The notes: generated by a model from the sequence alone, not told the origin. DNA of 32,000 nucleotides from Candidatus Saganbacteria bacterium (GCA_026387835.1 JAPLKZ010000011.1:54082-86081); one strand, 5' to 3'. Positions 6,534 to 26,686 are shown, counted from the stretch's first letter. Made by a program: numbers and translations.

Positions 6534-8180
6534 ATGATGATGAAGAAATCAGTTCTTGTTTTCATGTCCGCAATTATCTTGTGCGGGGCCGTTTCGGTGG
6601 CCTTGGCACAGGATAAGGTCAGCGCAGCCGTTAATCAGGCGTGTTATTTTGGAATATTCAGGCAAGGTGCTCCCGGAAATATGGGCCTCATAAACAGCCT
6701 TGAAAAAAAGACAGGGAAAAAATTTTCGGTCATCATGTGGTACCAGGATTGGAGCACGACTTTTAATAAAAGCCTCTGCGACAAGGTAGTCAGGAAAGGT
6801 GCAGTGCCGCACATCGTCTGGGAGCCCTGGCTGTGGTCTGACAAAGAAAAGATCAAACTCGGCAATATTTTGGCGGGTGAGTGGGACTCGCATATCAGGC
6901 AGTACGCGCAGGATGTGAGAAACTGGGGAAAACCGATCTTTATCAGATGGGGGCATGAGTTCAATATCGAAGGATATCCGTGGTGTGTCGTCAACAACGG
7001 CAAAGACCCGAAAAAATATGTTGATGCTTTCAGGCACGTGAAAAACATTTTTAATGAAGAAGGCGCCGACAATGCGATGTTCGTCTGGTGCCCGATGAGG
7101 GAATCGTGGCCGCAGGAAAAATGGAATGATATGGAGCTTGCTTATCCCGGGGACGAATATGTCGACTGGATCGGCATAGACGGCTATAACTGGGGCGTCA
7201 CCCAGCCGTGGAGCCAGTGGCAGAGCTTCAAGGAGCTTTTCAGGGATGTCTCAAGGAGCCTCTGGAGGGCGCACCCGACAAAACCGATAATGATAGCCGA
7301 GTTCGCGAGCGCCGACCTGGGCGACGACAAAGCCGGATGGATACTTGATATGAACGAAGAGCTGAAAAAGATGCCCTACATAAAGGCCATTAACTGGTTT
7401 GACGAAAAAAAAGAGGCTGACTGGAGGATCGAAAGCACGCCCAAAACTCTGGCAGCTTTTAAAACTCTGATTAAAGACCCGTATTTTACAGCTTCATCAG
7501 CTGGGATCGCGGATATTAAACAGGCTTTTAAATTCGGGATAGAAAAGAAAAAAGCTGTTGCAAGGTATGCCTCAACATCCGTTAAGATCGATGCGGATAT
7601 ATCTGACTGGATGACCGATTCATTTATGACGATAGATCAGGAATCCCAAATCCAGGAAGGTGCAAATCTATGGAAAAGTCCTTCAGACCTCAGTGCAAAG
7701 GTCTATTTAAAGTGGGACAACGATAACCTTTATATTGCTGCAGATGTTACTGACAAAAACCCGTTGATCAATTCAAAGAAGGGAAAGAATATCTGGAACG
7801 GCGATGCAATAGAAATTTGCCTCGGACTTGATAATTATGAAAGATCAAAACTAGGGGACAAAGATTTTCAGATTGGTTTCAGCAGCGGTAACGGTAAACT
7901 AGTCAGGCCATCAGTATGGATATGGACCAATTCACTTGCACCAGAAAATGCGGATATTGCAGTAGTGAAGACAATCGGCAAAAACGGTTATATACTTGAG
8001 GCAAAATTGCCGTGGGCTGCCATGGGCAGTTTCAGGCCTTCAAACGGTCAGAAGATTGGATTTGACTGTGCTATAGACAGTGCCAGCTTACGCGACAGGG
8101 ACCTTCAGATGGTATGGAACGGGGATTATTATTTCTACAAGGACCCAGGGGTCTGGGGCGAACTGGAATTTGCCAAATAA
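6534..8180 (+). CDS. Secreted GH26-like glycanase (beta-mannanase-like) with a C-terminal CBM9-like domain
   Basis: Signal peptide MMMKKSVLVFMSAIILCGAVSVALA. GH26-type blocks: IFIRWGHEFNIEGYPW (acid/base Glu), YPGDEYVDWIGIDGYNWG and KPIMIAEFAS (nucleophile Glu). C-terminal pattern typical of CBM9-like modules: IDADISDW...VYLKWDNDNLYIAADVTDKNP...WNGDAIEI...GYILEAKLPW...GQKIGFDCAIDSA. Confidence 0.8.
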   Translation: MMMKKSVLVFMSAIILCGAVSVALAQDKVSAAVNQACYFGIFRQGAPGNMGLINSLEKKTGKKFSVIMWYQDWSTTFNKSLCDKVVRKGAVPHIVWEPWLWSDKEKIKLGNILAGEWDSHIRQYAQDVRNWGKPIFIRWGHEFNIEGYPWCVVNNGKDPKKYVDAFRHVKNIFNEEGADNAMFVWCPMRESWPQEKWNDMELAYPGDEYVDWIGIDGYNWGVTQPWSQWQSFKELFRDVSRSLWRAHPTKPIMIAEFASADLGDDKAGWILDMNEELKKMPYIKAINWFDEKKEADWRIESTPKTLAAFKTLIKDPYFTASSAGIADIKQAFKFGIEKKKAVARYASTSVKIDADISDWMTDSFMTIDQESQIQEGANLWKSPSDLSAKVYLKWDNDNLYIAADVTDKNPLINSKKGKNIWNGDAIEICLGLDNYERSKLGDKDFQIGFSSGNGKLVRPSVWIWTNSLAPENADIAVVKTIGKNGYILEAKLPWAAMGSFRPSNGQKIGFDCAIDSASLRDRDLQMVWNGDYYFYKDPGVWGELEFAK

Positions 8181-9180
8181 CAGATCATTCAGTGTCCTTA
8201 TAATACTGGCCGCATCATTATTTTTGGCCGTACATTCGGGATGCGAGAAATACTCTTCGTCTTCAGATAAGGTCTATGGAAAGATAGCTGCCGACCCTTC
8301 AGGTTGTTATATCGGCGCTTTTGTCACCGGCACCACAAACATCTCCGGTTACGAGAGCGATATCGGGACAAAGCTTGCCTGTGTCATGTGGTACATCAAT
8401 TTTACCCAGGATTTTCCAAAGACGGACTGCGACAGTGTTATTGCCAACGGGAGCATTCCCTGTATAACCTGGGAGCCGTGGAAAGGCGTTATACCGGATG
8501 AAAGCTATTCATTGCAGAACATAATTGACGGGGACTTCGATACTTATATAAATTCATGGGCGGTTTCAGCCAAAAATTTTAAGTACCCGATCTTTGTAAG
8601 GTTCGCGCACGAGATGAACGGGAACTGGTATCCCTGGGACGGATCGCACAACGGAGGATCGTCAGGCGGACCGGCAAAATATATAAGCGCCTGGAGACAT
8701 GTCTATACAATATTCCGTGATGCGGGGGCTGAAAATGTCACGTGGGTGTGGGACGTGAATGCTGACAGCGTGCCGGCGGATGACTGGAACAAGGCCGAGA
8801 ATTATTATCCGGGGGACGCTTATGTCGACTGGATCAGCGTTGACGGCTACAACTGGGGGACTTCATCAGCCGGCACCTCATGGCAGGATTTTGATTCGAT
8901 ATTTCTTTCCGCTTATAATACATTATATGAAGACCATTCCGGAAAGCCTATAATGATCGGGGAAACGGCATCCACCGAAGACGGGGGCAGCAAATCCGAC
9001 TGGATAAAGGACGCTTTTGATAAATTGAGGACGAAATATGCCGGCATCAAATTATTCAACTGGTTCAATATCGATAAAGAAACGGACTGGAGGATACAAT
9101 CGAGCGCTTCGGCAAAACAGGCGATGAAAGATGCGATGACAGGGTCTAAATATTTTATAAGCAAAATTCCGCTGAATTAA
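8170..9180 (+). CDS. Second GH26-like glycanase, catalytic domain only, possible lipoprotein
   Basis: Paralogous blocks: IFVRFAHEMNGNWYPW, YPGDAYVDWISVDGYNWG and KPIMIGETAS. The track start (ATG 8080) would overlap the upstream gene by 101 nt. TTG at 8170 gives MPNNRSFSVLIILAASLFLAVHSGC, a signal peptide with a Cys, and overlaps the upstream stop by 11 nt. The start is uncertain. Confidence 0.75.
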   Translation: MPNNRSFSVLIILAASLFLAVHSGCEKYSSSSDKVYGKIAADPSGCYIGAFVTGTTNISGYESDIGTKLACVMWYINFTQDFPKTDCDSVIANGSIPCITWEPWKGVIPDESYSLQNIIDGDFDTYINSWAVSAKNFKYPIFVRFAHEMNGNWYPWDGSHNGGSSGGPAKYISAWRHVYTIFRDAGAENVTWVWDVNADSVPADDWNKAENYYPGDAYVDWISVDGYNWGTSSAGTSWQDFDSIFLSAYNTLYEDHSGKPIMIGETASTEDGGSKSDWIKDAFDKLRTKYAGIKLFNWFNIDKETDWRIQSSASAKQAMKDAMTGSKYFISKIPLN

Positions 9181-9241: not shown

Positions 9242-9270
9242 TTGACGCTTTATAGATAGGGTGTTATATT
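9242..9270 (+). promoter_or_regulatory. Sigma70-type promoter with extended -10 for the 9296-17076 gene block
   Basis: TTGACG (9242-9247), a 17-nt spacer, then TGtTATATT (-10 at 9265-9270). It is followed by the SD gaagggggtg (9281-9290) and ATG 9296. It lies in the only sizeable intergenic gap (115 nt) of this gene row. Confidence 0.5.
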
Positions 9271-9295
9271 TTTCTAAAAAGAAGGGGGTGAACAA

Positions 9296-9967
9296 ATGAA
9301 AAAGAGAGTGATGGCGATGATACTGGCAGCAAGTCTTATTGCGGTTTCCGTCTCGGCTGCGGTTGCGTTGAGTTCAAAGCTGATCGACAACTTTGAGAGC
9401 AATATCGACTTGAAAAGCCCTGAGTGGTGGCACTTCGGCTATGTTACCGTGTCCGTCGAAAAGAACCCCGCTTTCAGGCCAGGGGACAAAGTGGCCAAAA
9501 GCTGCGGCAAGTATTCAATGGTCATAAAAGGAAGCGCGAACGACTGGTACTGCGGCGGCGTCGGCTCCTATATCGGTGTTGATGCGTCAGGCTACTCCGG
9601 GATGGAAATGTGCGTGTACGGGTACGGTCCGGGTAGCGGGAAACTGAAAATCGAGCTTTATGACGATGACAAGGGAAGCTGGCAGACGCAGTACGACAGG
9701 GACTGGATCCCCTTAAAGGATGATATTTGGAAATTCGAGCAGGACGTCGACTGGAGAGGATGGAAAAAGATCTATATACCATTCTCCAGTTTTGTTGTGT
9801 CAAATCCAAAAAGAGGAGATGGAATACTCAATCTTGACCAGAACAAAGGCTCAGGCGGACTTCTGCAGGTGCAGTTCATCCTGATAGCCAGTTCAAAAGA
9901 CGGAGAGGCAAATATTAGAATGGATAATGTATCGCTTGTAACAAGGAGCGAGGAATCAGAGGAATGA
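9296..9967 (+). CDS. Secreted beta-sandwich protein, possibly a carbohydrate-binding (CBM11/CIA30-like) module
   Basis: Signal peptide MKKRVMAMILAASLIAVSVSAAVA. The mature part starts LIDNFESN...WWHFG...GKYSMVIKG...GKLKIELYDDD...NIRMDNVSLV, which resembles DFE-type lectin or CBM jelly rolls. The functional call is tentative. The stop overlaps the next ATG (ATGA at 9964-9967). Confidence 0.5.
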   Translation: MKKRVMAMILAASLIAVSVSAAVALSSKLIDNFESNIDLKSPEWWHFGYVTVSVEKNPAFRPGDKVAKSCGKYSMVIKGSANDWYCGGVGSYIGVDASGYSGMEMCVYGYGPGSGKLKIELYDDDKGSWQTQYDRDWIPLKDDIWKFEQDVDWRGWKKIYIPFSSFVVSNPKRGDGILNLDQNKGSGGLLQVQFILIASSKDGEANIRMDNVSLVTRSEESEE

Positions 9968-10545
9968 GGATATCGACCAAGGTACGAAAAGTCTTTATTT
10001 TTTCCCTGCTGTGCGCAGCGGCAATGACAGTCGCCTGTCAGGCGGCCACGGTCACGCTGGGCGGAAATGTAAGCGTTAAAGTATCCGGCGTTTTTACGCT
10101 GTCGATAGACACGTCTTCAGTAGATTTTGGATCTTCAAGGCCGGGAGACTGGAAAGAGGTCCCTTCAACATCTGGATACGCGGATGCCGTTGTGTGCAAA
10201 TCAAATACCGGAAGCGCCTGGTATTTAAAAATAAAGGCAAGCGGACCTCTTTCCTCCGGTTCAAATTCAATACCCCTGGCAAATTTCGGCTGGATGTCCT
10301 CTTATGCGGGCAGCAAGAACACCCCGTATAATAATTTGAGCTCCGGTCTGACGCACCAGCCGGCAGAGGGATATCAGGCTTTTACAGGTTCGGACCAGGG
10401 AGTCTACACATCGGGCCCGGCAGATAACAACAGCATGCCTAACGGAACGGAGGTACAGTTCAAATACAGCGTACAAGTACCGGATAACCCGTCGCAGCTG
10501 GCAGGCACGTACACTACGACCGTGACGTATACGATGACGGAATAG
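9964..10545 (+). CDS. Secreted pilin/fimbrial-subunit-like protein, paralog 1
   Basis: 193 aa with signal peptide ...LLCAAAMTVACQA. Shares blocks with the next two genes: VDFGSSRPGDWKEV, WYLKIKAS, IPLANFGWMSSYAG and EVQFKYSVQVPDNPSQLAGTYTTTVTYTMTE. Confidence 0.6.
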   Translation: MRISTKVRKVFIFSLLCAAAMTVACQAATVTLGGNVSVKVSGVFTLSIDTSSVDFGSSRPGDWKEVPSTSGYADAVVCKSNTGSAWYLKIKASGPLSSGSNSIPLANFGWMSSYAGSKNTPYNNLSSGLTHQPAEGYQAFTGSDQGVYTSGPADNNSMPNGTEVQFKYSVQVPDNPSQLAGTYTTTVTYTMTE

Positions 10546-10579
10546 CAGTAAGCAGTAAGCTGTAAGCGGTAAGCTTAAA
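10545..10579. repeat. Tandem heptamer array (GCNGTAA) x5
   Basis: gcagtaa gcagtaa gctgtaa gcggtaa gcttaaa, starting on the last base of the TAG stop of paralog 1. The 7-nt period puts TAA in all three frames. Confidence 0.9.
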
Positions 10580-10593
10580 GAAAAAAACTTTGG

Positions 10594-10621
10594 CTTAAAG
10601 CTTAAAACTTAAGTCTTAAAG
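10594..10621. repeat. Tandem heptamer array (CTTAAAG-like) x4
   Basis: cttaaag cttaaaa cttaagt cttaaag. A further copy sits at 10574-10580, separated by an A7 tract. The SD taggaggg follows at 10632-10639. Confidence 0.85.
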
Positions 10622-10647
10622 CTATAAATAATAGGAGGGAAATAAAG

Positions 10648-11163
10648 ATGAAAAAATTATTGTGTCTGATCGCGGTCGCGGTGATCCTGACAGGAGGTAT
10701 AAGCTTTGCGCTTTCTTCAACCCAGCAGTCGACCTTCACGGTGACTGTCAGCTCGATATTCGAGCTGAGCATAGACCAGGGAATGATCGATTTTGGGAGG
10801 ATGAAGCCAGGAGAGGTGAAATGGAACATCCCTCCTTCCGGGGTGACCGTCACGGCTAAGACGAACAGCGGAAAATCATGGTTTCTCAAAGTATCTGCGA
10901 GCAATCCTTTTTCTTACGGTTCGTACATGATCCCGTATTCAAAGTTTGTCTGGACAGGCTGGACCGACGGGGCGGGAAGATGGTACGGGACCGGAAACAA
11001 TATCATGACACCGACGCCGTCGCTGGTATATGCGAGCGCTCTAGGCGAAGAAAATAACCTGCCCAGCGGCACGAACAATCATTTCAAGTTCAAATTGTCT
11101 GTGCCCGAAAACCAGTCTCCGGGCGTTTACACGACGACGGTAAAGTTCACGATGACGGAATGA
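10648..11163 (+). CDS. Secreted pilin/fimbrial-subunit-like protein, paralog 2
   Basis: 171 aa with signal peptide MKKLLCLIAVAVILTGGISFA and a strong SD. Blocks: IDFGRMKPGEVKW, WFLKVSAS, IPYSKFVWTGW and HFKFKLSVPENQSPGVYTTTVKFTMTE. Confidence 0.6.
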   Translation: MKKLLCLIAVAVILTGGISFALSSTQQSTFTVTVSSIFELSIDQGMIDFGRMKPGEVKWNIPPSGVTVTAKTNSGKSWFLKVSASNPFSYGSYMIPYSKFVWTGWTDGAGRWYGTGNNIMTPTPSLVYASALGEENNLPSGTNNHFKFKLSVPENQSPGVYTTTVKFTMTE

Positions 11164-11194
11164 TCAACTGATGATGTGCGTTGGTTGGAATAAT

Positions 11195-11761
11195 ATGATG
11201 AAAAAATTAATATTAATAGGTTTTTTGATAACTATACTTAGCGGGGCTTCAAATGCCCTGACTATGACATTGAGCGACAATACTCTTGATTTTGGGACGA
11301 TGACGCTCGGCGAGTGGAAAGAGATATCGGCGGGAGGGGGTTTTCACAACAGGCTTTCGGTGGTCTCGGACAACGGGAACGTGTGGAGGGTCTATATCAA
11401 GGCTGACCAGGAACTAATAAATACAACCATGCCCACCGTGACTATACCTAATTCAGCTTTCAAGTGGATGTCCACGTATGCGGGAAATCAAAATGCAAAC
11501 AATGAAAACTTCAGCGCAGGTCTATATCATCAGGCGGGAGACGGATATGTGCCTTTCACCCTTGTGAACGAGCTGGTCTATACATCAGGAGTAAAAACCG
11601 TATTTGATCCCGCCGACCCTTCAAAAACAACATATGTTGTAAATGATAACAATAATCTTCCGTTCGGCACAGAGATCCAGTTTAAATACGGCATCGGTAT
11701 GCCGGACAACCAGACGGCAGGCACGTATACGACGACGGTAACAATTACGGTAACACAGTAG
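11195..11761 (+). CDS. Secreted pilin/fimbrial-subunit-like protein, paralog 3
   Basis: The ORF is open from ATG 11171. ATG 11195 gives a typical signal peptide, MMKKLILIGFLITILSGASNA. Blocks: LDFGTMTLGEWKEI, WRVYIKAD, IPNSAFKWMSTYAG and EIQFKYGIGMPDNQTAGTYTTTVTITVTQ. Confidence 0.6.
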   Translation: MMKKLILIGFLITILSGASNALTMTLSDNTLDFGTMTLGEWKEISAGGGFHNRLSVVSDNGNVWRVYIKADQELINTTMPTVTIPNSAFKWMSTYAGNQNANNENFSAGLYHQAGDGYVPFTLVNELVYTSGVKTVFDPADPSKTTYVVNDNNNLPFGTEIQFKYGIGMPDNQTAGTYTTTVTITVTQ

Positions 11762-11784
11762 GAAGTAAAAAGGAGGATATAGAT

Positions 11785-12585
11785 TTGAAAAAGGTATTTT
11801 TAGCCATCGCAGGTTTAGTATTTCTTGCGCAGATAGCGTCCGCCTTTTCAATTAATGTTGATCCGCCGAGCATCTGGGAAACGATGGGCCCCGGGAGCAG
11901 CAGGTCCGGCAAGATCATGGTGGAGAACAGGGGAAGCGGCGATATCGTGGTGAACGCTTATACGGAAGACTGGGTATTTTTAAAAGACCGGAGCAAGGAA
12001 TTTAAAAAAGCGGGAACGACCCGGTATTCTTGCGCTAACTGGATAGTGCTTTACCCGACAAATTTTATCCTGGGCTCCGGGAAGACACAGGAAGTCAAAT
12101 ACACGATCTCTATGCCGTCAACGGCGCAGGGCGGGTATTACTCCGTGATATTTTTTGAGTCCAGGCTCGACAGCCGGGCATCTACAAAAAGGTCTAACGT
12201 CATCCTTTTGGGAAGGATAGGCTCGATCGTTTACGCGGAAACGCAGGGGGCCTCCAGGAAAGCAGCCGCGATAACAAATCTTTCTTTCAAGAAACTTTCA
12301 GCCAAGAAACCGTATGAAGCTATTTTTACCGTGGCAAATGAAGGCAACTCGGCCGTTTCCCCGGAAGGCAGCATCATAATAACCGACGACAGCGCGAGAC
12401 TGTACGCGAAGATAGACATAAAAAAATTCTATGTGCTCCAGGGCGAAAGGATCCCGGTGAAGGCTTACTGGGCGGGCGCGCTTCCCGAAGGGGAATACAG
12501 CGTGATAGCCACGCTCGATCTAGGGACAAAGACGCCAGTGACCGGTGTCTGCAAGCTCGTTGTCGGAGGCAGCAAAAGAAAGTAA
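11785..12585 (+). CDS. Secreted two-Ig-like-domain protein, candidate periplasmic assembly chaperone
   Basis: 266 aa with a TTG start 8 nt after the SD aaaggagg, and signal peptide MKKVFLAIAGLVFLAQIASA. It has two ~120-aa halves with beta-sandwich periodicity: SINVDPPSIWETMGPGSSRSGKIMVENRGSGDIVVNAYTEDW...GGYYSVIFFES, and AIFTVANEGNSAVSPEGSIIITD...GEYSVIATLDLG. Its position after the subunit genes mirrors the chaperone slot of Csu-type operons. Confidence 0.45.
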   Translation: MKKVFLAIAGLVFLAQIASAFSINVDPPSIWETMGPGSSRSGKIMVENRGSGDIVVNAYTEDWVFLKDRSKEFKKAGTTRYSCANWIVLYPTNFILGSGKTQEVKYTISMPSTAQGGYYSVIFFESRLDSRASTKRSNVILLGRIGSIVYAETQGASRKAAAITNLSFKKLSAKKPYEAIFTVANEGNSAVSPEGSIIITDDSARLYAKIDIKKFYVLQGERIPVKAYWAGALPEGEYSVIATLDLGTKTPVTGVCKLVVGGSKRK

Positions 12586-12616
12586 GGCCGATGTAACGTG
12601 ATGGAAGCCCATTATT

Positions 12617-15067
12617 ATGATGAAAAAATATATATTAACTATATTGTTATGCTGTTTATTCCCGGCGGTCCTGCTTGCCCCGTCATTTGCTAAAAGCACA
12701 ACTTATGTTAATCTCTCTCCCGTCGAGGAAAAGACGTTCGTCACGGGAAACCTTTACAAGGTCCTGAGCGCCAATCCCGACATCGCGCAGGCGGTCAAAA
12801 TAAGTTCGACATCTTTCAAAATAATCGGCGGAGGTCCCGGCTCTACTTTTGTATATCTCTTCGGCAGCGACGGTTATGTCAACACTATTAAAGTCGTCGT
12901 GGAGAGAAGGTCCGCCTTAGACAGCGCGGCTGCCATCGAAGGGCAGGGAAGGACTTATTCGCCGTTGAAGTTCAACTATATGTTCATGTCATACGGCGGG
13001 AGCTCCAACTCGCAGTATGCAAATAACAGGTGGGCGTACAACGGTTCAATAAACCAAATAAAGATGGCCGGTGACACCCCGCTCGGGAAAACAGATTCTT
13101 ATATCCAGTACGAAAGCTACAATTTCAAATACGGCGTGACACAGATGTTATTTAACATCAAGGACGACAAAAATTATGTGGCGTTCGGCGATAACACGGC
13201 AAATTTTTCTGATATAACCCTTCCCTACATCCATTATCAGGGATTGTATCTGCAATCCAAACTTTCCGACCTGTTAGAGGTCAAGGTGGCAGGCGGAGCA
13301 AGAGGCAACGGATACTGGGGGAAAGAAGTGAGGAACGACACGAGACCCGTACAGTCATTTTTGGGGGCGGACGTCATGTTGAAGCCGACCGCGAATTTCA
13401 ACGTAAATGTCAACGCTGTCATGTCCACGGCAGAGGCTTCGGCCGCGAGCCCGACGATATTTGGCATCGGCGCGAGATATAATCCGTTCAGCCAGGTGAC
13501 CCTTGCCGGCGAGTACGCAAGCCAGTCGGAGCTGAAAGCGTGGCAGGCAAAGGCGATATATAATTGGTCAAACCTTTATCTAAGCGGCACGTACAGGAAT
13601 GTTCCAGCGAATTTCCAGACTCCGGTGGACACGGTGAGCATGAGGGGGATCGAGGGGCTATTCCTTTCGGGCACTTACAGGCCGCTCTCATTTGTGCGTT
13701 TGAGCGCGGACGGCAGCAGGTATAAAAACTCTTATCTCCAGGATGCCGGCAGCAACACTTATAACAAGGACATGAGAGGCGAGATCGAACTTACTCTGGC
13801 GCCCAACAGCAGGTTTTTGTATTCGCCGTGGATGCAGGACCACAGGGCTTATACCAGCGGCGGTCTGGCAGAGGGCGCCATTTCCCAGCTTTCCCTCGGG
13901 TTTAAGTTCATCGGGTCTGACGTTGTGTACTTTAAATACGAGCCGACAAAATATTCTTTTTCAAGTTCGTCGGAATCTAATTACCAGAACGATAAATCTT
14001 CTGTCGGACTGCAGATGGGCCTGACCGAAACGCTCGGGATGAATTTTGAAAAAGAATGGGATGTTAAGACATACCTGGCGAATTCCTCCGTGGAGAACAA
14101 CGGTTTTTTCAAAATAACGCTGAACTATGATTCAAAGATCGGTAAAACGCCGTTCTACACCGTTGTCAACTCGAACTATTACACCGGGACCGAGAACAAC
14201 GGCAACGTGACCGAGATATGGGCGGATGTCGAACTGGGTTACCAGCCGGATGAAGATACCAAGATCTATATCAGGGGCAAGACAGCCGATTACAGCGGCA
14301 CCGGCTCCAACCTGACCGACAGGAATGAAAAACATATCAATGTCGGGCTAAAGACAGCGTTCCTTTCGGATATCGCGTGGAACGGATACGGGGATATACA
14401 GGGTTGCGTGTTCATCGATTCAAACGGCGACGGCATCAAGAATGACAGCGAGGCGGGACTTGCGGGCGTGAAAGTATCGATCGCCGGCGTGACCGTCATC
14501 ACGAACGGCCAGGGGCTCTATATTATCAAAGCCGTAAGGGCAGGGCAGGCCAGCGTAATGATGGATCAGGCTTCGACCGGACAGGGGTATATTTTAACTT
14601 CTCAAAACCCGCAGGTCTTACAGCTGGCGGCAGGCAGGACGATGAAGGCTGATTTCGGCCTGATATCAAAGTCGTCCGTCACCGGCAGAGCGTTCAAAGA
14701 TATGAATAAGAGCGGAAAGTTTGACGGGAAAGATATCCCGGCCGCCGGCATAGGCATTGTGTTTGACGGCAGCACGTATCCTACAGCTGCCGACGGGACC
14801 TACGTGATATACGATGTCAAAGAAGGCAGGCATTCCTTGAATATAAATATTGATTCCCTGCCGCAGAACTTTGTGCCGGCCGTTCCCGTCAATAATACGG
14901 TCGATGTCAAGAGAGGCGAAACATATAAATTCAATGTCGCCCTCAAAGGCCCGGACATTGCGCAGAAGAAAGCCATTAAAAGTAAAAAACTAAAAAATAT
15001 CCGGCCCAAGGTAAAAAAGGCCAAGCATTCAAAGAAAAAAACAGCATTGGGCCGGCCGGCCCGTTAA
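12617..15067 (+). CDS. Outer-membrane protein: CpaC/RcpA-type pilus N-terminal domain, ~490-aa beta-barrel-like region, two SdrD-B/Cna-B-like domains, Lys-rich tail
   Basis: Signal peptide MMKKYILTILLCCLFPAVLLAPSFA. N-domain: LSPVEEKTFVTGNLYKVLSANPDIAQAVKISSTSFKIIGGGPGSTFVYLFGSDGYVNTIKVVV. The middle is rich in Y/G/S/N alternating strands. From ~14391: GCVFIDSNGDGIKNDSEAGLAGVKVSI...NGQGLYII. From ~14675: GRAFKDMNKSGKFDGKDIPAAGIGIVFDG...DGTYVIYDV. Tail: KKAIKSKKLKNIRPKVKKAKHSKKK. Confidence 0.6.
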   Translation: MMKKYILTILLCCLFPAVLLAPSFAKSTTYVNLSPVEEKTFVTGNLYKVLSANPDIAQAVKISSTSFKIIGGGPGSTFVYLFGSDGYVNTIKVVVERRSALDSAAAIEGQGRTYSPLKFNYMFMSYGGSSNSQYANNRWAYNGSINQIKMAGDTPLGKTDSYIQYESYNFKYGVTQMLFNIKDDKNYVAFGDNTANFSDITLPYIHYQGLYLQSKLSDLLEVKVAGGARGNGYWGKEVRNDTRPVQSFLGADVMLKPTANFNVNVNAVMSTAEASAASPTIFGIGARYNPFSQVTLAGEYASQSELKAWQAKAIYNWSNLYLSGTYRNVPANFQTPVDTVSMRGIEGLFLSGTYRPLSFVRLSADGSRYKNSYLQDAGSNTYNKDMRGEIELTLAPNSRFLYSPWMQDHRAYTSGGLAEGAISQLSLGFKFIGSDVVYFKYEPTKYSFSSSSESNYQNDKSSVGLQMGLTETLGMNFEKEWDVKTYLANSSVENNGFFKITLNYDSKIGKTPFYTVVNSNYYTGTENNGNVTEIWADVELGYQPDEDTKIYIRGKTADYSGTGSNLTDRNEKHINVGLKTAFLSDIAWNGYGDIQGCVFIDSNGDGIKNDSEAGLAGVKVSIAGVTVITNGQGLYIIKAVRAGQASVMMDQASTGQGYILTSQNPQVLQLAAGRTMKADFGLISKSSVTGRAFKDMNKSGKFDGKDIPAAGIGIVFDGSTYPTAADGTYVIYDVKEGRHSLNINIDSLPQNFVPAVPVNNTVDVKRGETYKFNVALKGPDIAQKKAIKSKKLKNIRPKVKKAKHSKKKTALGRPAR

Positions 15068-15068
15068 T

Positions 15069-15097
15069 TTGTGCCGGCATTGTAATTTTGTTATACT
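15069..15097 (+). promoter_or_regulatory. Possible internal promoter ahead of the subtilase gene
   Basis: TTGTGC (15069-15074), a 17-nt spacer, then TGtTATACT (-10 at 15092-15097). Only 11 nt separate it from ATG 15109 and no SD is visible, so the mRNA would have a very short leader. Confidence 0.3.
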
Positions 15098-15108
15098 AAA
15101 AAGCAGTT

Positions 15109-17076
15109 ATGAAAAAATTTATAGCTGTCTTTTTTGTTCTCCCCCTTCTCACGGCAAGCCTGTTCGCGGCTCAGGTAGACCCCCAACTTATAGATAGGAT
15201 CAGGACAGCTTCTTCGTCCGAAAAGATCTCGGCGATCGTCTTTATGAAACAGCCGGCGGGTATTTCGATGATGCCGCAGGATGCCGCTTCAAGGGTAATG
15301 CTCCTGAAGAATATCTCAAGGAACTCGCAGAAAGATGTGACCGAGTTCCTCGTCAGGGAAAGAACCGGGAAGCGTGTCAGGGCGTTCAATTCCCTGTGGA
15401 GCATCAATTGCATCGCGGTGTCCGCCGATACAAAGACCATAAAAGAACTTTCGGGTAGAAGCGATATAGAAAAGATCATCCTCAACAGAAAATTTTCCCT
15501 TCCCAAAGAGCCGGTAACGACAGTCCCGCTGGGCACGAGGACTTCTTCCGGGACTATCGAGCCTAATATCAGCCAGATAAGAGCGGATGCGGTATGGACG
15601 ACGTTCGGGAATAAAGGCAATGGCGTGAAGATAGGCATCGCTGATACCGGATGTCTTGTCACGCATCCCGACCTTTCCGCAAGGATATTAAAGTCCGCGA
15701 CATTTGACGATCTCGGGACCAAGACAAGCGATACAGCAAACGATGTGGATGGCCACGGCACGCATGTCGCGGGCATAACGGCAGGCGGGAATGCTTCGGG
15801 CCCGTATATCGGTGTCGCGCCCTCGGCCTCGCTTTTGATAGCCAAAGTATTTGATGATGCGGGCAACGCTTCATACGCCCAGGTGGCGGGAGGGGTGGAG
15901 TGGCTTATTACAAATGAGGCAAAAGTCATAAATCTGTCTCTCGGAGCTTCAAAAGGGGACGCGGATTCATTCTGGAACACTGAGGTAGAAAGATGGAATA
16001 CCCTTCTCGGAGTGATCGTTGTAGGAGCGATAGGAAATTACGGACCGGAAGCAGGAACGACCACAAGCCCGGCAAACTGCCCGAGTGCGTTAAGCGCGGG
16101 AGCGGTAGATCCAAATGACCTGATATGCGATTTCAGCTCGCGCGGTCCGATCATATGGGGCACCACGACATATTCAAAGCCGGATATCAGTGCACCCGGA
16201 AAAGCAATAGTATCTTCGTATAAGGACGGTGCGTATACGGCCATGAGCGGGACTTCGATGGCATCGCCGCACATAGCCGGAGTCGTAGCATTGATGTTGT
16301 CAGCGAACAGCACTCTCAGCCCTTCTTCCGTCAAGAGGATAATTAAAGAAACGGCTTCCCAAAGATCCGATGTCCCGTCATATCCCAATTATGACTACGG
16401 CAGCGGCAGGGCAGACGCTTATGCGGCTGTAGTAGCCGCCATGAAACCGGACACCGATGCGCCGGTTATAACGCATACACCGGTGACAAGTTCGAAGTTC
16501 GGTACCGTGATCACCATAACGGCAAAAGTGACCGACGAGACGACATTGATCCCGACAGCCAACCTGACCTGCAGGAATCTTTACAATGTCTGGACGACAT
16601 CAGCGATGTCCGCGGAGACCGGTTCTTCGGACTATTCTGCAGTTATCCAAGCTTCGGACGTGAAAAGCAATGTTGATTATTATATCTCTGCTTCGGACGC
16701 GGCAGGGAACACATCGACATCTCCTTCCGGAGCCCCGGCATCATACAACACGATCTCGATCGTCTCCCGTGAATCCATGTCTATCTCGGACAGTCAGACG
16801 TGCCCCAACCCCTTCGCTCCGGGATCTTCAAGCATGACCCTTTCGTATTATCTTTCCAAAACGGCCGATGTCACCGTCAGGATATATTCCATGTCCGGGG
16901 AGGTGATGAAAGCATTCAGCCGGACAGGAGTGTTGGGATATAACGGCCTCACCTGGGACGGGATGCTCGAAAACGGCGAGACCGCGGCGAACGGGGTCTA
17001 CCTGTACCAGATAATCGCAAAGGATACTTCCGGAGGATTCAGCACCGCGAAGGGAAAGATTATTGTTTTGAAATAA
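15109..17076 (+). CDS. Secreted subtilisin-family (S8) serine protease with an N-terminal propeptide and a C-terminal FlgD-Ig/T9SS-CTD-like domain
   Basis: Signal peptide MKKFIAVFFVLPLLTASLFA. Catalytic triad blocks: GIADTG (Asp), DGHGTHVAG (His) and SGTSMASPHIAG (Ser). C-terminal ~90 aa: CPNPFAPGSSSMTLSYYL...VTVRIYSMSGEVM...GLTWDG...NGVYLYQIIAKD...KGKIIVLK. Confidence 0.85.
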   Translation: MKKFIAVFFVLPLLTASLFAAQVDPQLIDRIRTASSSEKISAIVFMKQPAGISMMPQDAASRVMLLKNISRNSQKDVTEFLVRERTGKRVRAFNSLWSINCIAVSADTKTIKELSGRSDIEKIILNRKFSLPKEPVTTVPLGTRTSSGTIEPNISQIRADAVWTTFGNKGNGVKIGIADTGCLVTHPDLSARILKSATFDDLGTKTSDTANDVDGHGTHVAGITAGGNASGPYIGVAPSASLLIAKVFDDAGNASYAQVAGGVEWLITNEAKVINLSLGASKGDADSFWNTEVERWNTLLGVIVVGAIGNYGPEAGTTTSPANCPSALSAGAVDPNDLICDFSSRGPIIWGTTTYSKPDISAPGKAIVSSYKDGAYTAMSGTSMASPHIAGVVALMLSANSTLSPSSVKRIIKETASQRSDVPSYPNYDYGSGRADAYAAVVAAMKPDTDAPVITHTPVTSSKFGTVITITAKVTDETTLIPTANLTCRNLYNVWTTSAMSAETGSSDYSAVIQASDVKSNVDYYISASDAAGNTSTSPSGAPASYNTISIVSRESMSISDSQTCPNPFAPGSSSMTLSYYLSKTADVTVRIYSMSGEVMKAFSRTGVLGYNGLTWDGMLENGETAANGVYLYQIIAKDTSGGFSTAKGKIIVLK

Positions 17077-17117: not shown

Positions 17118-20100
17118 TTAAAAGTTGATCGTCCCCTCGAACGTCATCATATTTGCCCTGAAATTATTTGAAGATATAAGGTAGTCCGTATAGTCGACCT
17201 CCTTGTATGTCGCCGAAAGCACGATGCTCGACAATATCAGGCTTTCCTGAGGGAGGGTGATGTTGAAGGAATAGCTGTTCGTCACCTTAAGTATGTCAAG
17301 GTTTGTGACGACCCCGGCCTGCACTTCGCCTTTGTTCCTTTCCTGCTGCCAGTTGTAGACAAGGCTCCCCCAGCTAAATATCTTCAGGGTGGTCTGCGCG
17401 TCTAAATTTTCTTTCGGGCGTTCCGCGTTCAAAATAAGGTCTTTTGTCGTCTTCATCGCATAATTCCCGGAAAAGCTGAGGATCGATACCGGGGAAAAAC
17501 TCAGGCCGTATTTTAATGTGGTGTTTTCGGTCTTAGTGGTTATAATCCCGTCGCTGGTATTGTTGTTATAATCCTCGATTATATAGTCCGAATTCAGCGT
17601 GAACAAGCCGAAAGGAGTGATGCTGCCGTTGAAGTTCTTTGTCTCCGAGTTGAGATCGGTTATTATTTCGGAGCTCCCGCTCGGCGCGGAAGACTGACGT
17701 TCCTGCGTATCCCACCTCGAACCCAGCTTGAGAAAAGAAAATGGAGTGAAGTCTACGGAAACATTCTTTGCCACGCCCTTACTCCTTGTCCCGGCCTCCT
17801 GCAGGGATTTGTCGTCGGATCTGCCGTAGGCAAGTGACAGGACGGAAAATGGCGTGAACCTGACAGAATAGTTGTCTTTTTCTGTATTTGGGTTTTCCTG
17901 GTCTGCCTGGACGCTTAATGTTTCGGTACGGTTCTTATCATACGTGGCCGAAAGGTTGCTGAGCGGATCAAGGACGACATTATAGGATTCGTTCTTTGTA
18001 AAGACTTTGGCCAGTGTCAGGGCATTCAGCTGGTCGTGCTGGATCAGTCTTGCCCTTGTCGAGAATTTCTTCAGAAATCCGAAAGTGAGGTCCCAGTCCG
18101 CATTGTACGTGCTGTCGCGCGAGATCTCGCAGTAGGTCACTCCCTCGCTGGTATGATTTTTTGGTTCGCTGTACTGGAACTCATACCCAAGCCCCAGCCT
18201 TTTTGCCACGTTGAGCGTGTTAGCGGTATGGAAAAATCCGACGGTAGAGCCGGAGTCGTCGAGAAAGTTGGTCGTCTCGCTCTTGGAGAAATCCTCCCTG
18301 TTGGTGAAAGCCACGTATTTCGAATCAACGCTCTTTGGGACGACGGAAAAAGCGAGCGAGTTCGTGATGTTGTTTGACTGATGCGTTGTCGATCCCGGCA
18401 GGATGTCGTCCATGACCTTGTAATTCCTGAAGTTCATGTTAATCTGGACAAGGCCTTTAGGATTCACGCCGATACCTATGTTCCTGTCGGTATTCCAGGT
18501 GTAATAGCCCGTGTACGTGCCGATCTGGCTCTTGGTCTCGAGTATGCTTGAGGCTACGGACAGAGATTCCCCGGAACTGTACCCGAGATCGATCCTTTTC
18601 TGCTGGCTTCCGGTGCCGATATTGGTGGATTCGAAAGGAGTATAATCGGCATTGATCTCTTTGATGTAAGCACCGACCGAGAACGGCCCGGCTTTTGTGG
18701 CCGCATTGACCCTGTATGCGGCGCCGGTCTTGACGGTAGACCCTGTTGATATTCCGGACGACGACTGGTAATCGTACTGTATGACCATCGTATCCGCAGG
18801 TTTTATCGTGAGATAATAGAAACTCAGCTGGCCGCTCTGATAGTTCATAAAATAGTCGACGTCCTTGTTCATCTGGAAATTGTTCAAAAAGACCTTTTCC
18901 GAGCCCTCTATGATATTGTTGTGCGACAGGCTGTACGGTCCGCGGGTGTTGTTCCCGATGATCGTGTCCTGTGTTGATTCCGACATTATCACCTGGTCGG
19001 TCCTGCTGATGCCGACCGCCGCGTCGATCACGGTGTCGGGTCCGATCGTGATATTCGTGTTCACGCCAGTCACGTCGTGGTTGATGTCGCTGTCCTGGAC
19101 AGACGCGCTCGCGGGTATGTAATAGAACGTTATGTCGAACTTCTTCTGGTTAGGGAACGGATCGTTAAAAGTTATGTAGGGAGTGTACGGGAAGTTGTAG
19201 TTTATCTTGTATTTGCCGTCCGCTACTTCTCTCGAGCTGTTACGCGTAAATGTATCGATGACGGAACTGCCGTCAGTCCTGACCTGCATGTTGGTATCGG
19301 TCGCCGGCACTACGGAGTTGATGCTCGTCAGATAATAAGGTCCCGTACTCCCGTTGCCGCGGCCGCTGAATTTTCCGTAAATACTTTTCTTGTAAACATA
19401 GTTGACCGCTATATCCGCTGACGCGTCAAGCGTGGATGTGAATTTTAATGTGCCTGTCGCATAGCCGTCGCTCGCATCGTCTTTATCGTTCAGATAAGGC
19501 ATATGAAGGCCTATTGCTTCTGAAGTCGGCACGTAGAAATCAGCGAAAGGGGTACCGTTCACGGTCACGGATACCGTCTGTGACGGGTCAAGAGGGAAAT
19601 GCTTCAGGTTGAGAAGATTGTTCGTTATCTCGCTTCCTTTTCTGGCTTCGACAAGAGTGGCTGTTGCGGCGGCGGAGCCTTTTTTGGCGGACTCTTTCAG
19701 ATATGTGGCCCCCAAAGTGAATGAGCTTTTGCTCGGGGGGACCAAAGCATCAGTATGTATCACAAAGGAATAGGAAGCGTTTATTTTTGAGGCGGCATTT
19801 ATTTTTGTGTTAAAAGTTATTTTTCCGGAATTATAATCTATCGTGTAATCCAGGCCCCTGAAGTTCTTCTTGCCGTCCACCTCGATGCGCTCGGAGTTCT
19901 TTACGACAGGATATTCGGTCATCTCATACGGCCCCTTGCTGTCGATCCCTGATATGACCTCGGATTCGCCCGAGACGTTGTAATAGCTGTATTTTACAGA
20001 AAGAGTATCATCGCTTGTGGGCATGTCTTCCAGCATGGCTGTTATAGTCCCGTAAGTATAATCTATGACATAGTCCTCGTATTTTTTCAGGAGCGTCCCT

Positions 20101-21146
20101 TTGTGATAGACAGATTCCGAATACTCTACCACGGGAAAATGCTTCAGCCGGTACAATCCCATGGCTTCTTCGCTGATAAAAGACGGTCTCACGAACTCCG
20201 GTTTAAGCGTTTCAGCGGATGAAGGTGCCGCTTCCGTGGAAGTCAGATAACCGGATTCTCCGGTGGCGGGGACGACGACCGGTCCGGCATCCGAATAAGA
20301 AAATGACGTCGGGAATTCATCGTTTGCTTCATATGATATCGGCATAGACGGTATGACCTCGGCTTTTTCAAAGAACATCCTTTTAGACGTGTAAGATCCC
20401 TGGACGCCGAAAAAGTCGCGTTTTGACACCGTGGGAAAGAACAGGTCAAAAAGGTTGGTGAATTCGTAAGTGTACGTGAACTGGTCGGCGGCTGTCAGTA
20501 TCCTGGCAAAAGTTATCTTGCCCTCAAAGTAATCGATCGTGTAATCGGTCCCCCTTGTGAGCGGGATATTGTTCAGGAGGATCTTTTCAGAACTCTCAAG
20601 GATCGATCCGTGACCGAGGCTGTAAGGGCCCCTTGTATTGTTGCCGATCACGGTGCTGATCGGCTGGTTGTTGCTTTTGAGCTTTGTTGACGGGACCAGG
20701 GTGAAAGTGTAATTATCTCCGGACGAGGTCAGCATCACGCCGTTCAGGTACTTTGTCGCCGAAACGAATTCGTTGCCAGAAAAACTTGCAGTGAAATCGC
20801 CGAATGTCAGCTCCGTGTTGTCGTATTTCACCTTAACATCAGATACCTGGGGCGTATCGGGCTCCTGTAAAATATTATATGAGACCCCGAGATGATCGTT
20901 CAGCTTGCTGTCTATCTTCAAGGTCAGTCTTTCCTGCCACTGCCCCGCGAGGGCGTTCTGCGACTGGCCTCCGAGCTGGGTGAGGGCGATGAAATAGTTC
21001 GACATCGGTTCCGCCTGGACCCTGTAGTACGACCATTTCTTAAAGCCGGATATATCGAACTGGGGATAGGTATCCGCGAACACACCACTTATAAGGACCG
21101 CCAGCGTGACGGCCAGCACAGCTATGAACGCGCGTTTCATTTTCAA
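17118..21146 (-). CDS. Very large outer-membrane protein: ~800 aa of repeated beta-sandwich modules plus a C-terminal beta-barrel-like region ending in Phe
   Basis: 1342-aa ORF. The track start is TTG 21146, and ATG at 21140 (MKRAFIAVLAVTLAVLISGVFA) is more likely. Repeated modules include IGNNTRGPYSLGHGSILESSEKILLNNIPLTRGTDYTIDYFEGKITF, IGNNTRGPYSLSHNNIIEGSEKVFLNNFQMNKDVDYFMNYQSGQLSF and KGPYEMTEYPVVKNSERIEVDGKKNFRGLDYTIDYNSGKITF. The C-terminal part has four [FI][TS]P[FV][SG]xLxL hairpin motifs and ends TFEGTINF. Confidence 0.7.
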   Translation of the reverse strand: MKMKRAFIAVLAVTLAVLISGVFADTYPQFDISGFKKWSYYRVQAEPMSNYFIALTQLGGQSQNALAGQWQERLTLKIDSKLNDHLGVSYNILQEPDTPQVSDVKVKYDNTELTFGDFTASFSGNEFVSATKYLNGVMLTSSGDNYTFTLVPSTKLKSNNQPISTVIGNNTRGPYSLGHGSILESSEKILLNNIPLTRGTDYTIDYFEGKITFARILTAADQFTYTYEFTNLFDLFFPTVSKRDFFGVQGSYTSKRMFFEKAEVIPSMPISYEANDEFPTSFSYSDAGPVVVPATGESGYLTSTEAAPSSAETLKPEFVRPSFISEEAMGLYRLKHFPVVEYSESVYHKGTLLKKYEDYVIDYTYGTITAMLEDMPTSDDTLSVKYSYYNVSGESEVISGIDSKGPYEMTEYPVVKNSERIEVDGKKNFRGLDYTIDYNSGKITFNTKINAASKINASYSFVIHTDALVPPSKSSFTLGATYLKESAKKGSAAATATLVEARKGSEITNNLLNLKHFPLDPSQTVSVTVNGTPFADFYVPTSEAIGLHMPYLNDKDDASDGYATGTLKFTSTLDASADIAVNYVYKKSIYGKFSGRGNGSTGPYYLTSINSVVPATDTNMQVRTDGSSVIDTFTRNSSREVADGKYKINYNFPYTPYITFNDPFPNQKKFDITFYYIPASASVQDSDINHDVTGVNTNITIGPDTVIDAAVGISRTDQVIMSESTQDTIIGNNTRGPYSLSHNNIIEGSEKVFLNNFQMNKDVDYFMNYQSGQLSFYYLTIKPADTMVIQYDYQSSSGISTGSTVKTGAAYRVNAATKAGPFSVGAYIKEINADYTPFESTNIGTGSQQKRIDLGYSSGESLSVASSILETKSQIGTYTGYYTWNTDRNIGIGVNPKGLVQINMNFRNYKVMDDILPGSTTHQSNNITNSLAFSVVPKSVDSKYVAFTNREDFSKSETTNFLDDSGSTVGFFHTANTLNVAKRLGLGYEFQYSEPKNHTSEGVTYCEISRDSTYNADWDLTFGFLKKFSTRARLIQHDQLNALTLAKVFTKNESYNVVLDPLSNLSATYDKNRTETLSVQADQENPNTEKDNYSVRFTPFSVLSLAYGRSDDKSLQEAGTRSKGVAKNVSVDFTPFSFLKLGSRWDTQERQSSAPSGSSEIITDLNSETKNFNGSITPFGLFTLNSDYIIEDYNNNTSDGIITTKTENTTLKYGLSFSPVSILSFSGNYAMKTTKDLILNAERPKENLDAQTTLKIFSWGSLVYNWQQERNKGEVQAGVVTNLDILKVTNSYSFNITLPQESLILSSIVLSATYKEVDYTDYLISSNNFRANMMTFEGTINF

Positions 21147-22754: not shown

Positions 22755-23198
22755 ATGTCAAAAGAGTTTATATTCGAAAAGACAATATATCTTTGCGACA
22801 CAAACGCTTTCGGGAATGCATATTTTTCGAAATATTTTGAATGGCAGGGTATGGCAAGAGAGGCTTTTTTTAGAGTTATCATGCCGGATCCTTTTTATTT
22901 GATGAATACGGGGACAAAACTAATTACAAAACGAGCGGCAGTGGAATACAAGCACGAAGTTTATCTCTATGATGATATTGAGATCGGCATAAAAGTAGGG
23001 GCTGTAAAACCGGCAAGCTCAGAACTGATATTTAATTATCGAAGAAAAAAAGATAATTTATTGTTTGCATTAGGTTATCAGGCCATATTATTTGCAGATA
23101 AAAATGGCGAGCCGATCAAAATACCAAAGGAGATCGTTGAAAAAGCAAGGCCTTATACAGATGAAGTGAAATATGTATTAGGGAAAATATTTAAATAA
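22755..23198 (+). CDS. Hotdog-fold acyl-CoA/acyl-ACP thioesterase (4HBT/YbgC-like)
   Basis: 147 aa. The block IYLCDTNAFGNAYFSKYFEWQGMAREAFF matches the 4HBT signature (catalytic Asp near the N-terminus, then hV.n..Y..yfe.a). The stop is 5 nt before the HK1 ATG. Confidence 0.7.
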   Translation: MSKEFIFEKTIYLCDTNAFGNAYFSKYFEWQGMAREAFFRVIMPDPFYLMNTGTKLITKRAAVEYKHEVYLYDDIEIGIKVGAVKPASSELIFNYRRKKDNLLFALGYQAILFADKNGEPIKIPKEIVEKARPYTDEVKYVLGKIFK

Positions 23199-23203
23199 CG
23201 TGT

Positions 23204-25300: not shown

Positions 25301-25324
25301 TGTTTCCTTGCCTCATAAAAATAT

Positions 25325-25353: not shown

Positions 25354-25367
25354 TACTCTAAAATAAA

Positions 25368-26684: not shown

Positions 26685-26686
26685 AT

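Follow-up and report, generated by a model that had tools for sequence, protein, structure and literature searches.

A locus of seven plus-strand genes, at positions 9242-17076 of a 32,000-nucleotide stretch from a Candidatus Saganbacteria genome (GCA_026387835.1, JAPLKZ010000011.1:54082-86081; this whole stretch is called the window), probably contains in its core a deeply divergent secretion and assembly system of the chaperone-usher type. Chaperone-usher pili, such as the adhesive pili of E. coli, are the product of a textbook Gram-negative assembly pathway. Like the operons of that pathway, the core combines several small secreted paralogous subunits, one periplasmic protein with two immunoglobulin-like (Ig) domains and one large outer-membrane (OM) protein. 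The interpretation follows from the recurrence of this gene order in about 19 other loci, from fold matches, from profile similarities that are specific to the expected partner and from the absence of an N-terminal extension in the last subunit. The initial annotation had recognized the logic of subunits, two-Ig protein and large OM protein and had placed it outside the canonical families. This holds: no model of the usher family (PF00577), of PapD-like chaperones or of fimbrial subunits matches.

Conservation was examined by screening for the three core families with hidden Markov models (HMMs) on the contigs of two relatives of the 266-aa two-Ig protein and in 31 loci from a species-level genome set. 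The order subunit(s), two-Ig protein, OM protein, all on one strand, occurs in about 19 distinct loci from other genomes. These belong to Margulisiibacteriota and close uncultured relatives (L002 and L004-L009), to Omnitrophota (L001, L011, L013, L014 and L020), to metagenome-assembled genomes (MAGs) of Planctomycetia (L010 and L023), to a MAG labelled Actinomycetes (L015) and to a separate uncultured clade (L016-L019). For some of the MAGs the taxonomic label may be unreliable, as in the case of the ‘Actinomycetes’ locus, which bears an OM protein gene. Given this recurrence, the core arrangement lies far beyond chance, and the gene block is kept across phyla. At the protein level, 33 cluster-level relatives of the 266-aa protein were detected among 5.8 billion proteins; the few that carry a source name come from Margulisiibacteriota and Omnitrophota.

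The outer genes of the locus follow a different pattern. A gene like that of the first, 223-aa protein, which resembles carbohydrate-binding modules of family 11 (CBM11), is the immediate upstream neighbour of the first subunit gene in L002, L004, L005, L006 and L009 and again in L016, L017, L019 and L021. Homologues of the glycoside hydrolase family 26 (GH26) genes that precede the locus (6534-9180, plus strand, the first with a CBM9 domain) are found upstream in L002, L004, L005, L006, L009, L016, L017 and L019. The position of the locus downstream of mannan-degrading genes, pointed out in the initial annotation, is thus a link conserved in two clades. Neither the GH26 nor the CBM11-like query finds a match in any Omnitrophota or Planctomycetia locus, and L001, an Omnitrophota locus with annotated flanks, has no carbohydrate-active enzyme genes near its core genes. 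Since the CBM11-like gene is clade-specific and the terminal subtilase gene is not conserved, the system is a triad of subunits, two-Ig protein and OM protein with clade-specific glycan-related accessories. Of the seven-gene system first proposed, it is this triad that is retained.

The three small proteins (subunit 1, 193 aa, 9964-10545; subunit 2, 171 aa, 10648-11163; subunit 3, 196 aa as listed, 11171-11761; all plus strand) are paralogues with pairwise identities of 35-41%. As first described, they share an alternating C-terminal strand, and all three end in G-x-Y-T-T-T-V-x-x-T-x-T-[EQ]. The true start of subunit 3 is probably the MMKK near 11195. Family members have in common a DFG motif, a W-[YF]-L-K-I strand, a segment I-P-x-x-x-F-x-W and the C-terminal motif P-x-x-Q-x-x-G-x-Y-T-T-x-[VI]-x-[FY]-T-[MV]-T-[EQ], whose last residue directly precedes the stop codon. 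Most subunits carry ordinary leaders of the signal-peptidase-I type and are not lipoprotein precursors. The likeness to SCPU/Csu- or DUF4402-type subunits suggested earlier does not reach the Pfam cut-offs: a window subunit scores 12.4 bits against a cut-off of 22.4 with SCPU (PF05229; E 0.21, the best value in the family being 0.0097) and 12.9 bits against 25.2 with DUF4402 (PF14352). No subunit is placed in SCPU, DUF4402 or WxL at the family thresholds, and the threshold of PF00419 is likewise not reached. NCBIfam returns nothing for the core proteins, and single-sequence searches of the PDB with the subunit, two-Ig and OM proteins return nothing useful.

Structure prediction and profile comparison bring the subunits closer to pilins. 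In the AlphaFold2 (AF2) model of the 171-aa subunit (pLDDT 85), a beta-sandwich ends with the C-terminus as its last strand, and residues 26-33, which belong to the extension at the mature N-terminus, are left unplaced (pLDDT <50). The best matches of this model in a Foldseek search of the PDB are the chaperone-usher pilins CfaB (E 2.5e-4), CsuA/B (TM-score 0.45-0.56), PapA, FimA, FimG and Caf1. The family comprising the three window subunits and their relatives also aligns with a profile of 14 E. coli pilins (hhalign 83%, E 9e-6); the aligned region comprises the signal peptide, the extension and the first strands.

The N-terminal extension varies with the position of the gene. From the mature N-terminus to the DFG motif there are about 27, 25 and 10 residues in subunits 1, 2 and 3, respectively. 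In all multi-subunit operons that allowed scoring of both motifs, the final subunit gene ahead of the chaperone gene encodes 10-18 residues before DFG, versus 25-34 in the others, and its product lacks the alternating N-terminal extension of about 15 residues. A subunit able to accept a strand but unable to donate one can only take the distal end of a fibre, and the presence of one extension-less subunit per operon recalls the tip subunits of chaperone-usher pili. Subunit 3 is therefore a candidate tip subunit, and subunits 1 and 2 both have the extension.

Tandem fusions of two or three pilin domains are encoded in several loci (L010 53-1027, L011 2992-3966, L013 8268-9269, L016 8182-9210, L017 8431-9444, L019 2273-3769, L020 9108-10517 and L023 7494-8915), with a linker of about 10 residues and an extension-like strand between the domains. 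This is the topology of engineered self-complemented pilins. The possibility that the 223-aa protein is the split-off N-terminal domain of these long ‘two-domain subunits’ was also considered and rejected: no similarity was found, the long proteins being tandem pilin-domain fusions.

The 102-nt spacer behind the first subunit gene contains two mutually pairing heptad arrays, AGCAGTA (4.4 copies) and GCTTAAA (5 copies), which form a long imperfect hairpin (10542-10628, plus strand; -25 kcal/mol, z=-2.8), a candidate attenuator or mRNA stabiliser. At the corresponding position L002, L004, L005 and L006 have strong hairpins as well, unrelated in sequence, with z from -4.4 to -4.8. In pap, a hairpin is known after the major pilin gene, and the similar placing found here, directly after the first subunit gene, would be expected if the first gene product were needed in excess.

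The periplasmic two-Ig protein (266 aa, TTG start, 11785-12585, plus strand) stands in the place of the chaperone. On its own it matches no Pfam family at E up to 1, PF06030, PF00345 and PF02753 included. Among 30 members of its family, WxLIP_PGBD (DUF916, PF06030) matches 24, with a best E-value of 3e-6, and WxLIP_HBD (DUF3324, PF11797) matches 8, which bears out the resemblance to DUF916/DUF3324 proteins seen in the initial annotation. Ig families similar to the PapD clan (ASH, MSP and FixG_C) give scattered matches across the same members, and the PapD models themselves (PF00345 and PF02753) are not among the top 25 families. A relative from Parcubacteria exceeds the PF06030 cut-off (27.9 versus 27.3); a CPR2 relative (24.1 bits) and a Pseudomonadales relative fall slightly short of it. 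Compared as a profile with seven E. coli PapD-like chaperones, the family gives 91.9% in hhalign (E 6.8e-7) over 217 columns and both domains. Four mismatched control pairs of signal-peptide-bearing families give 0.8-16.6%, so that the two comparisons, at 91.9% and 83%, appear specific to the matching partner. In the PDB, the family profile has a single sequence match, the fimbrial chaperone EcpB (E 0.028), in which YYRIVWFDQ...SARIGTILVV aligns with GGYYSVIFFE...GRIGSIVY of the family. Judged by these profiles, the two-Ig protein is a remote homologue of the PapD-like chaperones within a WxLIP/PapD-like superfamily; with the WxLIP matches and the alignment to PapD-like chaperones found together, ‘WxLIP-like’ and ‘PapD-like’ are not alternatives.

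The 816-aa OM protein (12617-15067, plus strand) appears usher-like by its predicted fold. The AF2 model built with the family alignment (pLDDT 88.6) shows, in order, a signal peptide, a seven-strand periplasmic N-terminal domain (residues 29-95, 12701-12901), a disordered linker, a beta-barrel (residues 118-583, 12968-14365), two C-terminal beta-sandwiches of SdrD_B/CarboxypepD_reg type (residues 591-777, 14387-14947) and a disordered Lys-rich tail (residues 781-816, 14957-15064). In a Foldseek search of the PDB, the 16 best matches are the ushers FimD and PapC (E 1e-19 to 1.5e-8). The best of them are full-length, covering 750-809 columns, and the isolated translocation domains of FimD and PapC match at 5e-11 to 1.5e-8. 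The next class of barrels (Occ porins, AlgE and MtrB) starts at 4e-8. The protein thus has the usher order of N-terminal domain, large barrel and two C-terminal beta-sandwiches, and in the model the latter occupy the position of the C-terminal domains CTD1 and CTD2 of ushers.

The Pfam domains of this protein come from elsewhere. T2SS-T3SS_pil_N (PF13629) matches residues 43-95 with 27 bits against a cut-off of 23, in agreement with the CpaC/RcpA-type pilus domain initially assigned to the N-terminus, and SdrD_B matches residues 597-664 with 31.8 bits against 29.7. The SdrD_B type expected of the C-terminal domains is thus confirmed; the Lys-rich tail is present, has a pLDDT <50 and is not conserved in an Omnitrophota homologue. 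The label ‘hybrid OM barrel’ stands as far as the mixture of pil_N and SdrD_B and the position outside PF00577 are concerned, and the usher-like predicted fold now adds to it. An exhaustive profile search with the N-terminal domain and barrel as query, among 1.84 billion representatives, retrieves 259 proteins with E-values of at most 1e-3, and 116 with at most 1e-10; most have 770-1100 aa and match over their full length, and the family, with 259 clusters, is rare. SdrD_B is found in 50 of 56 members, pil_N in 44 and N-terminal tetratricopeptide repeats in about 15, and no Pfam family covers the barrel, in which GGARGNGYWGK (residues 226-236) and P..D....RG.EG (336-347) are conserved loops. 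The N-terminal domain is that of the Tad/Flp secretins RcpA and CpaC, from which the protein differs in being a single-chain barrel rather than a multimeric secretin; the secretin domain PF00263 is not among the families reported for the 56 members, and there are no Tad genes nearby.

Several observations weigh against the assignment to a chaperone-usher type. PF00577 matches neither the window protein (E up to 1) nor any of the 56 members (E up to 0.01), and hhalign of the OM family with five E. coli ushers gives 0.4%, that is, no sequence signal. In the barrel model DSSP counts 26 strands, and a plug-sized insert is absent; ushers have 24 strands and a plug. TM-scores to ushers are low (0.31-0.48), so that a large barrel flanked by Ig-like domains may have arisen here by convergence. 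On the subunit side, the Foldseek E-values are modest (2.5e-4 and weaker), and N-terminal domains of GH123 are interleaved with the pilins at similar scores. Finally, in the clade L016-L019 the OM protein consists of the barrel only, about 500 aa without N- and C-terminal domains (e.g. L016 10877-12373), which is hard to reconcile with usher mechanics. The missing domains were sought as separately encoded proteins, and no such genes were found at E below 0.01. The other genes, for GH26, the CBM11-like protein, the subunits and the chaperone, are kept in this clade, which includes a complete chromosome of 1.77 Mb (OY969425.1).

From fold, profile and operon anatomy, from which all steps of the following scheme are drawn, we infer that the locus forms a fibre, that it does so by donor-strand exchange and that it binds glycan. 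The subunits would be exported by Sec as Ig-like folds without their last strand, and in the periplasm the 266-aa protein would hold them by contributing a strand. For this donor (G1) strand the candidate is the conserved ...VILLGRIGSIVY... segment, aligned with ...SARIGTILVV of EcpB. The complex of chaperone and subunit would then dock on the periplasmic N-terminal domain of the OM protein, and polymerisation would take place by exchange of the chaperone strand for the N-terminal extension of the next subunit (x-T-F-T-V-T-V-S-S), the growing chain being extruded through the barrel of about 26 strands. The extension-less 196-aa subunit would enter first and sit at the distal tip, while the 193-aa product of the first subunit gene, with the hairpin behind it, would be the abundant shaft subunit. 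In Saganbacteria/Margulisiibacteriota and in the second uncultured clade, the appendage would most likely attach to or capture mannan-type polysaccharide, because the operon adjoins CBM11-like and GH26/CBM9 mannanase genes in these two clades; the link with glycans is circumstantial but repeated.

Judged by architecture and function, the locus stands nearest to the chaperone-usher pathway, to which E. coli Fim, Pap and Ecp also belong; judged by sequence family, it stands nearest to WxLIP, and it falls outside the definition of either system. The chaperone-usher pathway is not the only system in which a two-Ig protein meets small beta-sandwich proteins. In the WxL/Csc clusters of Firmicutes, a two-Ig protein of the WxLIP superfamily is encoded next to small secreted beta-sandwich proteins with an aromatic-x-hydrophobic C-terminal strand, and such clusters recur beside polysaccharide-degradation genes. 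The locus could accordingly be a diderm counterpart, in which the small proteins would be displayed singly or as short complexes, with a WxLIP-like holder, an OM protein as export or anchor port and capture of polysaccharide together with GH26. This explanation is unlikely, although it has several points in its favour. The two-Ig family grades into WxLIP through the PF06030 matches of most of its members and through the Parcubacteria relative. The CPR2 relative has the full WxLIP architecture, including the C-terminal transmembrane helix, and adjoins a 1447-aa protein whose C-terminus weakly resembles the subunit profile (domain E 0.28). A strand of DUF916 is predicted by AF2 to complete the WxL sandwich (Hassan et al. 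2023, PMC10599100), a paper in which the words chaperone, usher and donor do not occur. A role in plant-polysaccharide use has been proposed for Csc/WxL clusters (Siezen et al. 2006, PMC1534035), and actinobacterial DUF916 clusters lie beside GH43 and sugar ATP-binding cassette (ABC) permease genes, an arrangement comparable to that of the window.

Other evidence speaks against such a counterpart. Unlike WxLIP proteins, which consist of DUF916, DUF3324 and a transmembrane helix, the window two-Ig protein has neither a PF06030 match nor a transmembrane anchor, and the C-terminal helix is likewise absent from the six relatives that were read. The conserved residues around the first motif of the WxL signature (D at W1-8, R at W1-6, GTxAG; PMC9772566) are missing from the subunits, and PF13731, the WxL domain, has no match in the approximately 30 subunit-like proteins scanned. 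W-[YF]-L occurs in subunits 1 and 2, and subunit 3 has W-R-V. A bridge from the subunits to WxL was sought through relatives in Actinomycetota, the candidate phyla radiation and Planctomycetota; PF13731 was never found, and the resemblance is at motif level alone (C-termini ...PWELEPDTYTATHTYTATQP). Monoderm WxL clusters also differ in that here an usher-like OM protein is present and an LPXTG partner is not. Polymerisation accounts better than WxL-like display for the tandem fusions and for an extension that some subunits have and others lack. The two explanations nevertheless overlap, and they could be joined: the locus would represent an unclassified, deep-branching class of the chaperone-usher pathway with a soluble, diderm WxLIP as its chaperone, and the WxL/Csc clusters and the DUF916 clusters of Actinobacteria and the candidate phyla radiation would be its usher-less, membrane-tethered relatives. 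This union is proposed tentatively, as possible rather than probable.

The neighbourhood of the locus raises the question of glycan uptake, with the OM protein as a porin for manno-oligosaccharides produced by GH26 and the small and two-Ig proteins as glycan-binding proteins of the SusE/F kind. The locus lies directly downstream of genes identified by Pfam as GH2, two ABC permeases, GH26 with CBM9, and GH26, and the link is conserved. The OM family includes barrel-only homologues, and its structural search gives Occ porins and AlgE as secondary matches, with E-values of about 1e-8 to 1e-7. The 223-aa secreted protein (9296-9967, plus strand), for which a lectin- or CBM-like nature had been proposed, matches CBM_11 (PF03425) with E=0.0034 and 17.9 bits against a cut-off of 27; CBM_11 and CIA30 match 10 of 10 homologues, with a best E-value of 1e-4 and always below the Pfam cut-off. 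Its family profile gives weak matches to the CBM11 of endoglucanase H and to CIA30 structures (E 0.1-0.4), and three homologues match SGBP_B_XBD. The protein thus appears CBM11/CIA30-like, as do the 10 homologues, though below cut-off, and it is an accessory of some clades rather than a part of the core. An uptake module nevertheless appears improbable. The triad of L001 does without carbohydrate-active enzyme genes nearby, and the GH26 and CBM11-like queries miss every locus from Omnitrophota and Planctomycetia. In E-value, ushers stand 11 orders of magnitude ahead of porins; the small proteins resemble pilins rather than known glycan-binding modules, and the two-Ig protein matches chaperones.

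It is more improbable still that the locus is an ordinary archaic (sigma, Csu-type) chaperone-usher operon whose oddities come from a remote host. The archaic systems, such as CsuA/B, CsuC and CsuD of A. baumannii, are the nearest class on the subunit side: SCPU is the best Pfam lead for the subunits, one homologue is labelled ‘spore coat protein U-like’ by the Joint Genome Institute (JGI), and CsuA/B is among the best structural matches. To our knowledge, however, one set of usher and chaperone sequence families defines all six recognised chaperone-usher clades (alpha, beta, gamma, kappa, pi and sigma). Here PF00577, PF00345 and PF02753 are unmatched at E up to 1, PF00419 and SCPU are not reached, NCBIfam has nothing for the OM protein and its alignment to ushers by hhalign failed. 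In addition, the OM protein has pil_N and SdrD_B domains at its ends and no plug, and its family is tiny and self-contained. The hosts, unlike those of the known chaperone-usher systems, are Margulisiibacteriota, Omnitrophota and Planctomycetia, not Proteobacteria.

The last alternative is a strand-exchange fibre like the type V pili of Bacteroidota (FimA/Mfa), in which the subtilase would trim the subunits to start polymerisation. In its favour are the secreted S8 protease encoded 41 nt downstream on the same strand and an S8 peptidase near a Streptomyces DUF916 cluster. It is scarcely credible, since none of the other related loci examined has the subtilase, whose C-terminal sorting-type domain alone recurs, once; most subunits have ordinary signal peptides and are not lipoprotein precursors, and a hairpin separates the OM protein and subtilase genes.

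The subtilase (655 aa, 15109-17076, plus strand) is an unrelated neighbour outside the conserved system. The initial annotation closed the operon with a secreted protease, and its identity is clear (Peptidase_S8, E 3e-58), but in the loci of Margulisiibacteriota and Omnitrophota that were examined, the genes downstream of the OM protein gene include no S8 homologue; the recurring sorting-type domain belongs to a gene downstream of the OM protein gene of L006. The C-terminal domain of the enzyme is of the FlgD_ig or type IX secretion system (T9SS) type A kind (TIGR04183, 26.3 bits against 23). Facing it, a convergent gene on the minus strand (17118-21146) encodes a 1342-aa protein with a sub-threshold match to the T9SS translocon SprA/Sov (TIGR04189, E 2e-17, 61.9 bits against 200) and a match to DUF2460; no homologue of this protein turned up in related loci. 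The two matches, read together, may point to a T9SS-like export route in this Saganbacteria genome.

Other gene clusters share parts of the system. On Deinococcus plasmids, a four-gene cluster has all its products annotated as hypothetical. The second of them is a clear two-Ig homologue (E 1e-40 with the family HMM); secreted proteins of about 290 aa and about 185 aa are encoded before and after it, and the fourth product has 1000-1090 aa. It was inspected in Deinococcus sp. AB2017081 (L035, NZ_CP140100.1, about 12.4-18.1 kb) and Deinococcus sp. NW-56 (L043, NZ_CP026517.1), and two further Deinococcus plasmids were matched in the search. Like the OM family, the large protein has two C-terminal SdrD_B-like domains (hhalign 97.8%). 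Its central region shows no similarity to the barrel, nor do the small proteins to the subunits (hhalign negative for the latter), and the chaperone gene is second in order, unlike in the window. The cluster may be a cultured relative of the system.

In Clavibacter, the DUF916 cluster of pCCh (L041) is directly behind sugar ABC permease and GH43 genes; on a Streptomyces goshikiensis plasmid (L042), such a cluster follows genes for glycoside hydrolase and RICIN proteins, and an S8 peptidase is encoded two genes downstream. Together these neighbourhoods echo the carbohydrate-enzyme and protease context of the window. A further arrangement, absent from the window, is seen in Margulisiibacteriota, where a second, usher-less set lies just downstream of the OM protein gene (L002 13471-19851; also L005 and L007). 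It encodes a 353-aa protein, a two-Ig paralogue (E 1e-32, with a faint WxLIP_PGBD match), a 323-aa protein, a 1169-aa protein with TIG and CBM_11 repeats and an SLH-domain protein. Full-text literature searches found no paper connecting WxLIP or DUF916 to chaperones or ushers and no description of an usher-like protein with pil_N and SdrD_B domains.

The layout of the locus is as first described, with seven open reading frames (ORFs) on the plus strand. The 193-aa gene overlaps the 223-aa gene by ATGA at 9964-9967, and the remaining gaps measure 102, 7, 23, 31 and 41 nt in gene order. The near-consensus promoter reported upstream is present as a sigma-70-like candidate at 9242-9270 (plus strand; TTGACG-17-TATATT with an extended -10 TG upstream) and agrees with the consensus at 10 of 12 positions. 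The region, however, is no richer in promoter-like sites than shuffled sequences are (11 found versus 10.1 expected), and the site therefore carries no weight alone. The hairpin between the OM protein and subtilase genes is GC-rich and lies at 15048-15063. The 266-aa and 171-aa products are 100% identical to the NCBI proteins NTZ10_06115 and NTZ10_06105, respectively, encoded on a 140-kb contig, and NCBI assigns the Saganbacteria lineage to the Cyanobacteriota/Melainabacteria group.

Upstream, the second GH26 ORF (8080-9180) is listed with a GTG start and a 101-nt overlap with the first (6534-8180). Its real start probably lies further downstream, before a hydrophobic leader (ILAASLFLAVHSGC) that is possibly a lipoprotein signal. 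Farther downstream, two paralogous histidine kinases with an N-terminal seven-transmembrane region (HisKA_7TM; 23204-25300 and 26830-28947) flank an aminotransferase gene, and the G+C content of the window from 23000 to 28947 is low (0.34-0.40, versus about 0.49 elsewhere).

With the chaperone-usher interpretation, the three-part logic and the predicted folds of that pathway would occur without detectable usher sequence similarity, in phyla with almost no experimental cell biology. Both this phyletic setting and the bridge to Gram-positive WxL biology are genuinely unfamiliar. If the proposed kinship holds, it would unify a Gram-negative pilus pathway with a Gram-positive surface-protein system, both tied to the capture of polysaccharides. 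The link between PapD-like chaperones and WxLIP/DUF916 offers a testable mechanism for WxL systems, in which a membrane-tethered chaperone would donate a strand to WxL-type subunits, and the Deinococcus plasmid clusters provide a cultured entry point. For the organisms themselves, the linkage with GH26/CBM9 and CBM11-like genes suggests appendage-mediated attachment to mannan in uncultured anaerobes.

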